This document shows positions 3,323-15,303 of a stretch of DNA of 64,000 bases, piece after piece. Made by a program: the position numbers and the translations under genes. Source of the DNA: Vicinamibacterales bacterium (GTDB lineage Bacteria; Acidobacteriota; Vicinamibacteria; Vicinamibacterales; CAVVIG01); assembly GCA_036004865.1 (NCBI GenBank), contig DASYQZ010000166.1, positions 10,921-74,920 on the forward strand, in the 5' to 3' direction. The notes below the pieces were generated by a model. That model had not been told where the DNA came from. It made no database searches and worked only from the letters and a program-made list of their open reading frames with translations. How positions within the stretch are numbered: the first letter of the stretch is position 1; every line of letters starts with the position of its first letter.

Positions 3323-4594
3323 GTGGACTCTGTGTCTGCGCAGGGTGCCGGGTGCCGCGTGCTTGGTGCCTCGTGCTCGGTGCTGAGTGCCTGGTGCCGG
3401 GTGCTGGGTACGTGGTGCCTGGTGCCGGGTGCCTCGTGCCTCGTTCTGGCGCAGACGCCGCAGCGCCCCGGCCAGATGCCGACGCTGCCGCTGACGCAGC
3501 TCGACGAGCGCGCGCTCGCCGCCGATCTCGATAACCGCACGTTCACGTTGACGTTCGCGCAGCCGGTGCCGGTCAAGGATCTGCTGCTGCTGCTCGTGCG
3601 CGGCACGAACCTCAGCGTCGTGCCCGATCCGGCGATCGGCGGCTCGTTCATCGGCGAGCTGAAGAACGTCACGGTCCGCCAGGCGCTCGGCTTGATCCTG
3701 ACCCCGCTCGGGCTCGACTACTCGGTCGACGGCAACATCATTCGCGTGTTCAGGCGCGAGCCGAGCACGCGCATCTTCGACGTCAACTACATCGCCTCGG
3801 AGCGCAGCGGCGCGGCAATGATCGGCGGGGTTGGCGCGGCCGGCGGCGACCCGGCGGCGCCCAGCTTCGCCAACGTCTCGACGGCAACGAAGGCCGATCT
3901 CTTCGTCGACCTGACGAGAGGCGTGCAGACGCTGCTCTCCGAGCGCGCGGCATTCAACGTCGATCGCAAAGCCGGACTCCTGCAGGTCACCGATTTTCCC
4001 GAGCGTCTCGACCGGGTCGCGCTGTATCTCGAGACGGTGCACGATCGCGTTCATCGTCAGGTGCAAATCGACGCCCGCGTCGTCGAGGTCGAGCTCAACG
4101 ACGAGAAGGCGCCGTCGCTCGACTGGGCCGGGCTCGCGGCGCAATTGATGGCCGATCAGTCGCCGGCCGAGCGCGCCGCCGCGCGGCCGACGCTCACGGG
4201 CATGCGCGTGATCGACGTGCAGAAGCTCCTCGGTCTGATGGCGGCGCAAGGCAAGCTGCTGGTCATGGCCAGCCCCCGTCTCGTGACGCTGAACAACGAG
4301 CCGGCGATCGTGCGCACCGATGCGATCACCATCAGCGTGACGCCGCAGATCGCGCCCGATTCGGCGGTCATGCTGAGCGTCAGCCCGATCGTGAAGGCGC
4401 CGGTCGTTGCAGAGTCCGACATGCTCGCGCGCGTCGCGGACGGCGAGACGCTCGTCATTCCGGGCTTCACACGCGATCGCGAAGTCCGCGAGCGCCGGAA
4501 CCTGGGAATTTCGGGCGGGTGGTTCGGCCGCGGCACGGTCGTCACGCGCAAGCGCGTCGAGGTCGTGATTCTCCTGACGCCGAAGATTCTGTAG
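3323..4594 (+). CDS. Secretin family protein (MshL/GspD/PilQ-like, reduced)
   Basis: STN/N0-like 'LKNVTVRQALGLIL', N3-like domain, 'RQVQIDARVVEVEL', 'SPRLVTLNNEPA', 'VTPQI', 'DGETLVIPG', 'EVVILLTPKIL'. Start codon uncertain. Confidence 0.85.
   Translation: MDSVSAQGAGCRVLGASCSVLSAWCRVLGTWCLVPGASCLVLAQTPQRPGQMPTLPLTQLDERALAADLDNRTFTLTFAQPVPVKDLLLLLVRGTNLSVVPDPAIGGSFIGELKNVTVRQALGLILTPLGLDYSVDGNIIRVFRREPSTRIFDVNYIASERSGAAMIGGVGAAGGDPAAPSFANVSTATKADLFVDLTRGVQTLLSERAAFNVDRKAGLLQVTDFPERLDRVALYLETVHDRVHRQVQIDARVVEVELNDEKAPSLDWAGLAAQLMADQSPAERAAARPTLTGMRVIDVQKLLGLMAAQGKLLVMASPRLVTLNNEPAIVRTDAITISVTPQIAPDSAVMLSVSPIVKAPVVAESDMLARVADGETLVIPGFTRDREVRERRNLGISGGWFGRGTVVTRKRVEVVILLTPKIL
3344..3448 (+). repeat. 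15 x 7-nt tandem repeat (GGTGCCK consensus) within secretin N-terminus
   Basis: GGTGCCG GGTGCCG CGTGCTT GGTGCCT CGTGCTC GGTGCTG AGTGCCT GGTGCCG …; translates as five 7-aa repeats. Confidence 0.85.
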
Positions 4595-4596
4595 CC

Positions 4597-12453: not shown

Positions 12454-14487
12454 GTGCGCAAGAAAATCGGTGAGTGCCTGATCCAAGCGGGCCTCATCAC
12501 TGACGACGACCTCCGGAGCGCACTGGCGGAGCACAAGCGCACGGGAGAGCGTGTCGGCGTTGTGCTGGTTCGCATGAACCTCGCGACTGAAAAGCAGATC
12601 GCGAAGGCGCTCGCGTTCCAGCTCGGGTTCCCGTACGTCAACCTCGCAGAGAATCCACCCGATCCGGCCGCGGTCGTCCTCATTCCGAAGGAAGTTGCGC
12701 TGAAGCGGGTGTGCGTCGCCGTCAGCCTCGAGAAAAACGTGCTGACCGTGGCGATGTCCGATCCGCTACTGTTCAGTCTCGTCCAGGATCTCGAGTTCCA
12801 GACCGGCCACCGTATCAAGCAGGTCGTGGCGACGCGCGGCGACATCATCGACGCGATTCAAACGCAGTATCCGGACAAAGCGCTGGCGGTGCGAACGCCT
12901 GCGCCCGCCGGCGGCGAACTCGCGGTCACCACTCCGTCGCCGTCGGCGCGGCGTTCCGGTGCGCCAACCGTCGAGATGCCGACGGGCGAAACGGCGCTGG
13001 CGCGCCGGCCTGAGGAAGAGATCTTCGAGTCGCCGGTCGCGGGGCTCAAGGCGAGCAGCGAAGCGGCGCCCATCATCGACCTCGTCGACCTCGTCGTGAA
13101 GAGCGCGATCAAGAGCAAGGCAAGCGACATTCACGTCGAGCCGATGGAGAAGGGCGTCCTCATCCGCCATCGTCTCGACGGCCTGCTGAAGGAAGTGATG
13201 GACCTTCCGAAGTGGGTCCACGAAGGGCTGATCGCGCGGCTCAAGATCATGGCGGGGATGGACATTGCCGAGAAGCGGCTGCCGCAGGACGGCCGTCTGC
13301 GATCGACGGCCGAGGACGGCACCGAAGTCGACTTCCGCGTCTCCACGCTGCGGACGCTGTTTGGCGAGAAAGTCGTCATGCGCGTGCTCGACCATCGCAA
13401 GGGCGTGCCCGCGATCGAAGAGATCGGCATGTCGGCGACGTCGCTCGAAGAAGTGCGCGTGTTCCTCCGCCATCAGCACGGGATGATTCTCGTCGTCGGA
13501 CCGACGGGCAGCGGGAAGTCGACCACGCTCAGCTCCGCGCTGAAATCGGTGCACTCGGAGAAGACGAACATCATCACGATCGAGGATCCGATCGAGTATC
13601 AGATTCCCGGCGTGAATCAGACGCAGATCAACGAAAAGATCAAGCTGACGTTCGCCAGCGCGCTGCGTTCGATTCTGCGGCAGGACCCGGACGTCATCCT
13701 CGTCGGCGAAATCCGCGACGCGGAGACGGCGAAGATCGCGATGCAGGCCGCGCAAACGGGCCACCTCGTCCTCTCGACGCTGCACACCGACGACGCGCCG
13801 TCGGTCGTCACGCGGTTGATGGACATCGGCACGGAGCCCTACGTGATCGCCGGAGCGATCGTCGGCGTCGTCGCGCAGCGGCTGGTGCGTCGCCTGTGCG
13901 TCCAGTGCCGTCGTCAGTACACTCCGCCGGCGGAGACGCTGCGGTCGCTGAACATTGCCGAGGCGGACGCCGCGACGATTCCGTTCTACAAATCGGTCGG
14001 CTGCGATCAGTGCAATCACACCGGATACCGTGGACGCATCGGCCTGTACGAGGTGATGCGCGTCACCGACAAGCTGCGCCGCCTGATCGCGTCGCGCGCG
14101 CAGGAGGACCAGATTCGCGAAGCGGCGATCGCCGGCGGCATGATTACGCTCGGCGAGGACGGCCTCGCAAAAGTGAAGAGCGGCGTCACGACGCCGGAGG
14201 AGTTGCTCCGCGTCGTCACCGAAGTGCGCGAGATGCGCACGCTCTGCGCGGGCTGCGGCGCGGCGGTCGGCGTCGATTTCCTCGCGTGCCCCCAGTGCGG
14301 CAAGCGTCAGGGATCGGGGTGCCCGCATTGCGGCCGCGCGCTTCAGCCAGGGTGGAACTTCTGTCCGTACTGCACAAAGAGCACGGTCGAGACCAAACGC
14401 GGCGCTGCGAAGCGGCTCAAGGAACGCGAGGCACCCGAGGGACGCCGCGAGCTGCCGGCGGCGAACGTGGCGGAGTTCAAGAAGTAG
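12454..14487 (+). CDS. PilB/GspE/MshE-family assembly ATPase with MshEN domain and C-terminal double zinc ribbon
   Basis: 'ASDIHVEP', 'EKRLPQDGR', Walker A GPTGSGKS, 'TIEDPIE', 'RQDPDVILVGEIRD', 'STLHT', tetracysteine CVQC..CDQC, terminal 4 x CxxC. Confidence 0.92.
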   Translation: MRKKIGECLIQAGLITDDDLRSALAEHKRTGERVGVVLVRMNLATEKQIAKALAFQLGFPYVNLAENPPDPAAVVLIPKEVALKRVCVAVSLEKNVLTVAMSDPLLFSLVQDLEFQTGHRIKQVVATRGDIIDAIQTQYPDKALAVRTPAPAGGELAVTTPSPSARRSGAPTVEMPTGETALARRPEEEIFESPVAGLKASSEAAPIIDLVDLVVKSAIKSKASDIHVEPMEKGVLIRHRLDGLLKEVMDLPKWVHEGLIARLKIMAGMDIAEKRLPQDGRLRSTAEDGTEVDFRVSTLRTLFGEKVVMRVLDHRKGVPAIEEIGMSATSLEEVRVFLRHQHGMILVVGPTGSGKSTTLSSALKSVHSEKTNIITIEDPIEYQIPGVNQTQINEKIKLTFASALRSILRQDPDVILVGEIRDAETAKIAMQAAQTGHLVLSTLHTDDAPSVVTRLMDIGTEPYVIAGAIVGVVAQRLVRRLCVQCRRQYTPPAETLRSLNIAEADAATIPFYKSVGCDQCNHTGYRGRIGLYEVMRVTDKLRRLIASRAQEDQIREAAIAGGMITLGEDGLAKVKSGVTTPEELLRVVTEVREMRTLCAGCGAAVGVDFLACPQCGKRQGSGCPHCGRALQPGWNFCPYCTKSTVETKRGAAKRLKEREAPEGRRELPAANVAEFKK

Positions 14488-15303
14488 GTGGCGCTCAAGA
14501 ACTATTACGAGCTGCTCGAGCTCCCGCCGACGGCGACGGCAGACGAAATCAAGCGAGCGTTCCGCGCGCAAATCGCCCGCTACCATCCCGATAAAGTCCA
14601 GCACCTCGGCAAGGAATTCCAGGACATGGCGGCCGACCGCGCCGCCGAGCTGACCGAGGCGTACCGAATCCTCTCCGACGAAGGGCGGCGTGCGGAGTAC
14701 GACCGCGCATCGGCGGCTGCGGGGACCGACACCGCCGGGAGCGCGGCCGCGAGCGCGGCGCCGCGGCCCGATGCCGGCGCCGGGCACGCCGCTCCGCCTC
14801 CACCGCCCCCACCGCCGGACACCGAGCCTCACGTCTCGAAGGGGCCGCAGTTCTCGCAGGAGCGCGCGACGCGCGATCAGTTCGTCCGGAAGGCGCTGAT
14901 CGGTCGGCTGCGGCAGGCGCTCGACGTCATCGGCGGCTACGACGAGTCGGAGGCGCGCAGCTTCGATCTGGCCTGGACACCCAAGAGAAAGATGTTCGCG
15001 AGCGGCAAAGGACCGCGTCTGCTGGCGCGGTTCGTGTCGCGCGTCGACGGCGAAGCGATCGCGGATGCGTGGATGCAGGCGATGAAGTGGGCCGGGAGCG
15101 AGGAAGTCTCCGTGCTGCTCATCGGCTCGACGATGGCGCCGGCGGGCGAGCTGGCAAAGGCGATCGCGGAGCAGCGGAGGAAATCGCGCGGCGCCAGGGC
15201 GACGCTGATTCCGGTCGACGCGAACAGTTGGGATGCGCACCTGCCGACCGATGCTCCGCCAATCGCAAAGACGCTGCTCTCACGCGTCAAGAGCGGCGCA
15301 TAA
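14488..15303 (+). CDS. J-domain (DnaJ-like) protein with unknown C-terminal alpha/beta domain
   Basis: 'NYYELLEL…EIKRAFR…YHPDK…EAYRILSD…RAEYD'. Starts immediately after the ATPase stop. Confidence 0.85.

Follow-up and report, generated by a model that had tools for sequence, protein, structure and literature searches.

A predicted gate-less secretin and a separable ATPase cassette at the site of a dismantled MSH-type locus in Vicinamibacterales

The mannose-sensitive haemagglutinin (MSHA) pilus of Vibrio and Aeromonas is encoded by mshI-J-K-L-M-N-E-G together with pilin genes. In the model of Denise et al. (2019), mshA, mshE, mshG and mshL, as well as mshM, are mandatory for an MSH pilus, and the systems reported there belong to Gamma- and Epsilonproteobacteria and Chrysiogenetes (PMC6668835); we found no acidobacterial MSH system in the open-access literature, and the genome-by-genome table of that study may list some. 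The outer-membrane ring of such machines is a secretin, a family that forms 12-15-mer pores, and the central gate of secretins, two beta-hairpins with a hinge glycine, has been treated as a conserved and required part. In PilQ, S448 and S453 lie in the proximal gate hairpin, L445 and T493 lie across both hairpins and G439 is the hinge (Weaver et al., PMC7545093). The reported gate lesions are leaky, non-functional laboratory mutants: point mutants leak (PMC10550240), and pIV with a 10-residue deletion in gate 2 forms leaky, non-functional multimers (PMC8563730). Even gated PilQ is described as requiring plug proteins (PMC13392014). A natural gate-less secretin was not found in the open-access literature.

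Here we analysed a 64-kb stretch of contig DASYQZ010000166.1 (hereafter the window), which carries an eight-gene locus with an MshL-type secretin, an ExeA-like ATPase, a TPR protein, the bystander acs, a degenerate GGDEF gene, a fusion of MshI and MshK (MshI-K), a PilB-type ATPase and a J-domain gene. We report that the secretin, judged by alignment, has lost its central gate, and that the locus is made of two separable units standing on the site of a dismantled MSH-type system, not of one intact system. An initial annotation made from the sequence alone had read it as a modified MSHA-type machine of a probable acidobacterium. The genes, their places and their strands were all confirmed (Table 1), and an acidobacterial host was supported; its named relatives are Vicinamibacterales or subgroup-6 Acidobacteriota. 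The GC content of the eight genes agrees with that of the remaining window, and the genome of origin (G000) is 74% complete.

The secretin and its missing gate

The window secretin has an N0/STN domain, an N3 domain and a secretin domain behind a Sec-type signal peptide, and carries neither a lipobox nor an S-domain. Pfam Secretin matched above its cut-off; the best NCBIfam model was MshL (TIGR02519) with 86 bits, below the cut-off of 250, against 203-217 bits in gated relatives. In a tree calculated without the gate columns, with one non-acidobacterial record and long-branch warnings, the protein was placed inside a set of gated acidobacterial orthologues whose clade also held Aeromonas MshL (support 98/88); PilQ, ExeD and GspD fell apart from this clade. 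Together with the MshK homology and the complete loci at the same site in relatives described below, this tree bears out the MSH ancestry proposed by the initial annotation for the secretin, ExeA, TPR and PilM-like genes. The signal peptide (window 3323-3452) is built of imperfect heptamer repeats and varies between near-identical strains. A 155-aa protein of this genome also matches Pfam Secretin above cut-off (L003:8800-9264, G000:C173); it adjoins an ECF sigma-like gene and is far too short for a secretin.

Alignment to PilQ placed L445, S448, S453 and T493 all inside deleted stretches, with an Asp at the hinge Gly. Gate hairpin 1 is cut to 14 residues; the corresponding length is 45 in complete loci and 35 in the PilQ of V. 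cholerae. Its stub has no stretch matching PilQ 440-460, which includes L445, S448 and S453. Across 12 reference rows the two gates spanned 35-47 and 21-33 residues, against 14 and 10 here. By this alignment, the window secretin is devoid of both central-gate hairpins. The initial annotation had rightly called the secretin reduced, without recognising that the lost parts were the gate.

N0, N3 and four-plus-four barrel strands were predicted in the window secretin. Its monomer model (pLDDT 77.7, pTM 0.58) kept the barrel strands as short hairpins, and a Foldseek search with this model returned BfpB and PilQ as best matches (E<1e-14); TM-scores were low owing to a different orientation of the domains. 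The protein retains the long C-terminal hairpin and its near-invariant GGWFG tip, and its amphipathic lip is shortened relative to gated secretins. The beta-lip is the part of a secretin that crosses the membrane; this region is predicted to be largely helical here and is down to 20 residues in four close relatives (L085, L086, L088 and L093), an erosion suggesting that the ring might have no passage across the outer membrane.

We excluded an assembly artefact as the source of the gate loss, since contigs of three sequencing runs (X2, X8 and X10) span the region without gaps and the same 14/10 stubs occur in 101 of the best 120 of 1213 database hits, at 68-100% identity (19 could not be read by the pattern). 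Nor is gate loss common among MshL relatives in our sample: within 127 full-length sequences from 150 library representatives, gates of at most 22 residues were present in 22 of the 85 rows that share 40% identity or more with this lineage, and in none of the 42 rows below that value. Gate length was then compared with gene content, after four frameshifted secretin rows of 50 had been dropped. Gate 1 measured 44-45 residues in all eight intact secretins from loci with PilN/PilO; among 38 rows without PilN/PilO it had at most 19 residues in 18, 22-31 in 5 and 38-45 in 15. Shortening was never seen in loci retaining PilN/PilO. Short gates need four changes on the tree, where a single clade was rejected (approximately unbiased test, p-AU 2e-8); taking the long gate as ancestral, which the outgroups support, shortening arose three times or more.

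The gate-less protein is under purifying selection. Simple Nei-Gojobori pairwise ratios of nonsynonymous to synonymous substitution rates (dN/dS), calculated on high-GC sequences, were 0.17 and 0.29 for the secretin (0.14-0.29 at the widest); the neighbours ino1 and acs gave 0.10-0.21 and 0.10-0.13, and all genes and domains compared lay within 0.06-0.32. A selected secretin that has deleted both gates, yet has kept the long GGWFG hairpin, might be a permanently open and very wide outer-membrane pore, fixed in position by ExeA, the TPR protein and MshI-K, through which large solutes or polymers are taken up or released. In such a pore, losing the gate repeatedly might be an adaptation; laboratory gate lesions are leaky, including the pIV deletion (PMC8563730, PMC10550240), and secretins are described as serving non-filament export, of slime for example (PMC12475490). 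However, an unsealed secretin would compromise the barrier, and gated PilQ already needs plugs (PMC13392014). With the lip eroded or gone in close relatives and no substrate or plug gene apparent within the locus, we consider an open pore unlikely.

Remains of an MSH-type locus

The 770-aa gene had been annotated as a PilM/PilN fusion, an identity that we rejected because no PilN segment is present. Residues 1-310 correspond to a PilM-like cytoplasmic domain (profile against PilM, PDB 2YCH, E=6.6e-12), followed by a weak transmembrane segment (residues 320-338) and a 350-aa Pro/Ala/Thr stalk that is one-third proline. The last ~65 aa match the open reading frame (ORF) directly upstream of Aeromonas mshL, that is, the MshK position (E=5.7e-13; HHalign 96.8%), and this MshK-like domain also weakly matches GspC HR domains (E=0.003-0.013). 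Of the 68 loci having both MshI and MshK, 51 encode them in a single frame, and all 51 are without PilN/PilO-like sequence, which is kept in 13 of the 17 unfused loci. On these sequence grounds, the gene is an MshI-MshK fusion formed by deletion of the sequence in between.

The window ExeA is 38% identical to the gene that follows Aeromonas mshL, in the same position, and 43% identical to an ExeA paralogue in a polysaccharide locus of the same genome, so that its assignment as MshM rests on position. A periplasmic SPOR domain was found in five of the six tested C-terminal ExeA extensions of relatives, and in one from outside the order Vicinamibacterales. The TPR protein has its transmembrane segment at residues 57-75, and its best NCBIfam model is PilW, below cut-off. 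In G036 the ExeA and TPR genes form a single 854-aa frame (L036:10255-12816), either a fusion or a sequencing error. Deletion of mshI, mshM or mshN is reported to leave the surface pili of V. cholerae undiminished (PMC4624765), which makes most of the survivors here accessory parts.

Prepilin, PilO and PilC genes were not called within the window, and no MshA-type pilin is present there. Elsewhere, the incomplete G000 encodes a core pilB-pilT-pilC-pilS-pilR set, a TPR-bearing GspD-like secretin and pilW/pilX-like genes, with one PilW-like prepilin; its sole T2SSF gene is the core pilC. Five relatives with a reduced locus have a complete, separate type IVa pilus (T4aP), with PilM above cut-off in 5/5 and PilQ in 4/5.

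We followed the locus through 61 genomes, G000 and 60 relatives, with orthologue cut-offs set by score gap and synteny (two diverged ATPases were included because they fall inside the clade); the relatives are not independent, and the counts are descriptive, with no statistical test. Orthologues of the secretin were present in 26 genomes, of the PilM-like gene in 18 (plus two remnants), of the ATPase in 24 and of the GGDEF gene in 23. The secretin, PilM-like gene and ATPase were found together in 11. Conserved linkage, which the initial annotation had put forward as a check, is not a one-off: the same order stands on one contig in six genomes (G009, G015, G028, G032, G046 and G016, the last up to the ATPase start), and the block is constantly flanked by ino1 on one side and a small ABC ATPase gene on the other.

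Successive stages of reduction survive among the relatives. G038 still carries the full set at this chromosomal site: a 588-aa secretin, ExeA, the TPR protein, four pilins, a PilM-PilN fusion, PilO-like and MshK-like proteins, a kinase, a sigma-54 regulator, an ATPase, a platform and a further pilin. The PilM-like profile retrieved 80 loci, of which 4 combine pilin, platform, PilN and PilO-like genes, 10 are intermediate and 66 are without any of these four; contig ends truncate some loci and others duplicate loci already counted, so that these numbers are not additive. Pilins occur in only 6 of the 80. Across the 61 genomes, the native platform gene turned up in 2, neither in G000 nor in any of the 36 others of its family. 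From the complete locus, then, pilins, platform, PilN, PilO and the native motor were lost and the PilM-like domain became fused to MshK by way of a proline-rich stalk. Complete E-G-I-J-K-L-M-N loci exist in other Acidobacteriota families, where a gated secretin matched in 11 of 121 genomes and seven loci were examined. Compact MSH-type operons there include L158-L162, whose secretins are apparently lipoproteins.

Such a series might also be read as slow decay, in which the remnants of a dead pilus system are kept by weak selection against toxic misfolding and by linkage to ino1 and acs, gate deletions being neutral. Genes are patchily lost in every combination, remnants of the locus persist in G011, G035 and G056, secretins are frameshifted in 4 of 50 rows and dN/dS exceeds that of the housekeeping neighbours. 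Against decay stand the secretin dN/dS itself, the identical stubs in those 101 database hits and the retention of a new in-frame fusion in 51 loci. Whole-gene deletion would be an easier route, and it does occur; on balance we find decay improbable.

The ATPase, GGDEF and J-domain cassette

The PilB-type ATPase has intact Walker A and B motifs, His box and tetra-Cys motif, a C-terminal double zinc ribbon and an MshEN motif (NF053729, 61.6 bits, cut-off 38). In the MshEN tandem (RLGxxLLxxGLLxxxxLxxxLxxQ) the hydrophobic positions are kept, and Lys and His replace Arg9 and Gln32 in motif 1; comparable polar changes in MshE altered affinity at most fivefold (PMC5013675). The protein thus matches a cyclic di-GMP (c-di-GMP) receptor motif and is a putative c-di-GMP-binding ATPase.

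In trees, which carried long-branch warnings, the ATPase formed a clade of its own, and a clade with the native motors of the locus was rejected (p-AU 0.0025, LG+G4). A quick mixture tree joined it to orphan ATPases (SH-aLRT 93), a link that a more careful tree leaves open; the nearest orphans have an MshEN-ATPase-(zinc ribbon)-receiver architecture. In G048 the window-type ATPase follows a native motor, platform and pilin, so that both once coexisted and the native motor was lost. Aeromonas MshE groups neither with the window ATPase nor with the native acidobacterial motors, so that it is the secretin, MshK and the gene content that justify the name MSH-type. We conclude that the window ATPase is not the native motor of the locus. 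The idea that all parts belong to one MSHA-type system was not supported here: secretin and ATPase branch with different systems, even though the genes are linked in relatives.

Three orphan PilB-type ATPases with MshEN and a C-terminal receiver were noted (L172:4319-6859, L175:4459-6783 and L176:365-2743); two of them have a zinc ribbon, and no pilus genes were detected adjoining them. Diverged copies of the window-type ATPase with an altered Walker B motif or His box (L073:2736-4604, L038:7631-9469, L115, L117, L121 and L127) keep MshEN and the zinc ribbon, have lost the J-protein and may be non-catalytic c-di-GMP adaptors.

The GGDEF protein has an unassigned helical N-terminal domain, for which the ESM Atlas gave one lead, below 0.9 (RsbRD_N on 23% of one cluster). 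None of its 42 readable rows of 51 has GG(D/E)EF (9 unmatched; duplicates included), and the RxxD I-site is invariant in 19/19 rows. From these motifs it is predicted not to be an active diguanylate cyclase and is a candidate c-di-GMP receptor. We rejected its proposed identity as an MshH analogue, since it has no EAL domain and no transmembrane segment; its profile matched the ORF at the Aeromonas MshH position with E=0.003, against 1e-22 for ordinary GGDEF proteins of G000, and the gene tracks the ATPase (22 of 23 genomes; 24 have the ATPase) and not the secretin (12 of 23).

The J-protein matches Pfam DnaJ with the HPD motif invariant in 17/17 rows, and fold search returned J domains only, bar one weak match (AF2093, E=0.004). 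Its C-terminal alpha/beta domain is confidently predicted and met only its own clusters in the ESM Atlas (below 0.9). The pairing of this gene with the ATPase, suspected in the initial annotation, held: it lies 3′ of 21 of 22 conserved ATPases and of none of seven diverged ones. DnaK and DnaJ are reported to act at pilus motors in cyanobacteria (PMC13710413, PMC9239167), and the protein is probably a J-domain co-chaperone, with a candidate client-binding role. A second ATPase and J-domain pair lies off this locus in G032 (L195:5575-7751, G032:C48), which suggests that the pairing moves as a unit. A sigma-70-like site precedes the ATPase gene (1 found against 0.5 expected). Visual inspection showed a similar pair in 6 of 11 relatives; scans for promoters and terminators by themselves stayed at chance level. 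A promoter likely separates the ATPase gene from the fusion gene.

The two units are inherited separately. The PilM-like gene accompanies the secretin in 16 of 18 genomes, the remaining two being at contig breaks; of the 24 genomes with the ATPase, 11 lack the secretin (two of them at contig breaks) and nine lack both secretin and MshI-K; and secretin and MshI-K occur without the ATPase in G005, G024, G041 and G054. This distribution, together with the loss of the alignment ring (PilN and PilO), the deleted beta-lip of several relatives and what seems to be the ATPase's own promoter, argues against a hybrid accessory machine. In such a machine MshI-K would dock the MshEN ATPase and take over the core T4aP's PilC and pilins; a filament would stand permanently in the secretin, so that no gate would be needed. 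The PilM-like domain is conserved, PilM docks the motor in known systems (PMC11656802) and the catalytic motifs of the ATPase are intact. All parts are co-located in 11 of 61 genomes, the MshI-K gene lies between the GGDEF and ATPase genes, and in one locus (L113), with one pilin left and no platform, the window-type ATPase occupies the native motor's place. We regard a hybrid machine, the reading nearest to the initial annotation's idea of an accessory module served by a core machine, as rather unlikely, though it is still a serious rival.

Three side observations concern the surroundings of these units. The one-base frameshift in acs, the bystander gene between the two halves of the locus, is probably an assembly error, since contigs from three of four runs carry an extra base at the site (window 8419-8421). 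Directly upstream of the window (L009:7633-10535) lie TonB_C, unknown membrane protein and VWA genes, which flank the locus in most relatives. At window 19762-20070, a 103-aa protein without Pfam or NCBIfam match stands beside methylmalonyl-CoA mutase in 8 of 26 clustered loci.

Table 1. Features of the locus in window coordinates.
Feature	Coordinates	Strand	Remarks
MshL-type secretin	3323..4594 (likely start 3380)	+	STN and Secretin domains
Beta-lip region of secretin	4121..4252 (D216-G259)	+	42 residues, predicted largely helical
Gate hairpin 1 stub	4298..4345 (E275-P290, numbering from 3476)	+	14 residues between anchors
Gate hairpin 2 stub	4385..4420 (P304-D315)	+	10 residues vs 24-25; part with PilQ T493 absent
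ExeA/MshM-like AAA ATPase	4597..5550	+	Walker A/B intact, C-terminal transmembrane segment
MshN-position TPR protein	5558..6859	+	N-terminal transmembrane segment, Pro-rich stalk, periplasmic TPR array
acs (acetyl-CoA synthetase)	6890..8850	+	Bystander between both halves; one-base frameshift near 8420
Degenerate GGDEF protein	8851..9864	-	SEDAI replaces GGDEF; RxxD I-site intact
MshI-MshK fusion	9991..12303	+	770 aa; PilM-like domain, weak transmembrane segment, stalk, MshK-like domain
Sigma-70-like site	12380..12408	+	TTGATC-17-TACAAT, 5′ of ATPase gene
PilB/GspE-family ATPase	12454..14487	+	MshEN-T2SSE-double zinc ribbon
J-domain protein	14488..15303	+	Start codon adjoins ATPase stop

Two units and their comparison with known systems

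The reading that we prefer, with a probability of roughly 40%, is that the locus comprises a secretin ring that serves, without a filament, as an envelope tether and, beside it, a c-di-GMP-controlled alternative motor for the core type IV pilus. The first unit would be what is left, across the envelope, of an MSH-type machine; its gate-less secretin probably still assembles into a ring and passes no pilus, and with no filament to admit, the gate would be dispensable. The ring would statically tie the outer membrane to the wall and the inner membrane. Its assembly and anchoring may be assisted by ExeA and the TPR protein, by analogy with ExeAB, reported as required for ExeD assembly (PMC4098917), and with GspB, described as linking the secretin to inner membrane and wall via its HR domain (PMC9239104). 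The MshK-like domain may grip the N0 domain of the secretin, one polypeptide then reaching from the cytoplasm to the ring. The second unit, the GGDEF-ATPase-J-protein cassette, would read c-di-GMP through the MshEN motif of the ATPase and through RxxD in the degenerate GGDEF protein. DnaK might be recruited by the J-protein to fold or remodel the ATPase hexamer, which would act on core PilC and PilM encoded elsewhere. The losses of genes and gate, the fusion, the purifying selection and the separate inheritance of the units are observations; ring formation, binding partners and function are inferred.

Several results weigh against this two-unit reading. A long gate is kept by 15 of the 38 filament-less loci, so that gate loss is not required, and each gene is patchily lost, the secretin being retained in 26 of 61 genomes. 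The dN/dS of the locus genes is above that of ino1 and acs. The window ExeA ends before the SPOR domain, which makes the idea of a wall anchor weaker in this genus, and pilM, pilO and pilQ were not found in G000, a genome that is 74% complete. The PilM-like domain is kept under selection, and the ATPase occurs in 13 of 18 genomes with the PilM-like gene, against a base rate of 24/61; both points fit a hybrid machine. Finally, the trees contain one non-acidobacterial record and gave long-branch warnings.

A bolder reading, tentative and somewhat short of an even chance, is that Vicinamibacterales repeatedly turned an MSH-type machine into a filament-free trans-envelope device. It would consist of a naturally gate-less ring and a one-chain PilM-stalk-MshK strut, and would serve either as an outer-membrane pore, always open and wider than any known, or as a blind structural rivet joining the membranes.

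The gate-less secretin is our main new result and the feature that merits attention. It represents a natural double-hairpin deletion, conserved in an abundant soil lineage and reached more than once. The relatives offer ready-made variants (gate 1 of 45, 43, 38, 28, 19 and 14 residues; lip from 45 to 20) that would be useful for separating the roles of gate and lip in sealing, assembly and membrane crossing. The series of loci records the stepwise dismantling of a type IV filament machine and the parts that outlive the filament; these are largely the accessory MshI, K, M and N with the secretin, a point of interest for what MshM and MshN do. In the cassette we see a compact candidate system by which c-di-GMP and chaperones could control a second PilB.

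Set against the mandatory components of the MSH model, the locus has the MshL secretin (by the tree, the family model scoring below cut-off) and, after it, MshM (by identity and position). It has no MshE motor of its own, no MshG platform and no MshA-type pilins in the window. The locus is therefore not a member of the MSH class, and resembles the assembly or tether half of an MSH or GspAB system. With MSHA it shares the L-M-N order of secretin, ExeA-like protein and TPR protein, the homologous MshI (PilM-like) and MshK domains and an MshEN ATPase nearby. It differs in having no MshG, pilins, MshJ or PilN part, in the fusion of MshI to MshK, in a secretin with neither gates nor lipobox, in an ATPase that is another paralogue with a double zinc ribbon and in a GGDEF protein that is no MshH.

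The ExeA-ExeB and GspA-GspB (OutB) pairs, secretin-assembly scaffolds in type II secretion, likewise combine an ExeA-like ATPase bearing a transmembrane segment, with a wall-binding domain (in our case among relatives), and an inner-membrane-anchored protein whose long stalk ends in an HR-like domain suited to secretin N0. Here, in contrast, the HR-like domain derives from MshK and is joined to a PilM-like one, the wall-binding domain is SPOR, and no secretion platform or pseudopilins stand beside the locus. Like PilQ, GspD, pIV and InvG, the window secretin is predicted to have N0, N3 and the outer and inner barrel strands of the family, and its fold search returns secretins. Unlike them, it has both hairpins deleted, the hinge Gly replaced, the amphipathic lip shortened and the beta-lip eroded; the gate-less states reported in the literature are laboratory mutants, whereas this one is natural. 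Lastly, the cassette shares with MshE, FimX-PilB and cyanobacterial DnaK1-DnaJ an MshEN tandem, intact ATPase motifs, a degenerate GGDEF partner and a J-domain partner. It departs from them in the Lys and His of motif 1 and the extra double zinc ribbon, in a receptor candidate with an RxxD I-site in place of EAL, and in a J-protein encoded in the ATPase's own unit, with a C-terminal domain of no assigned family.

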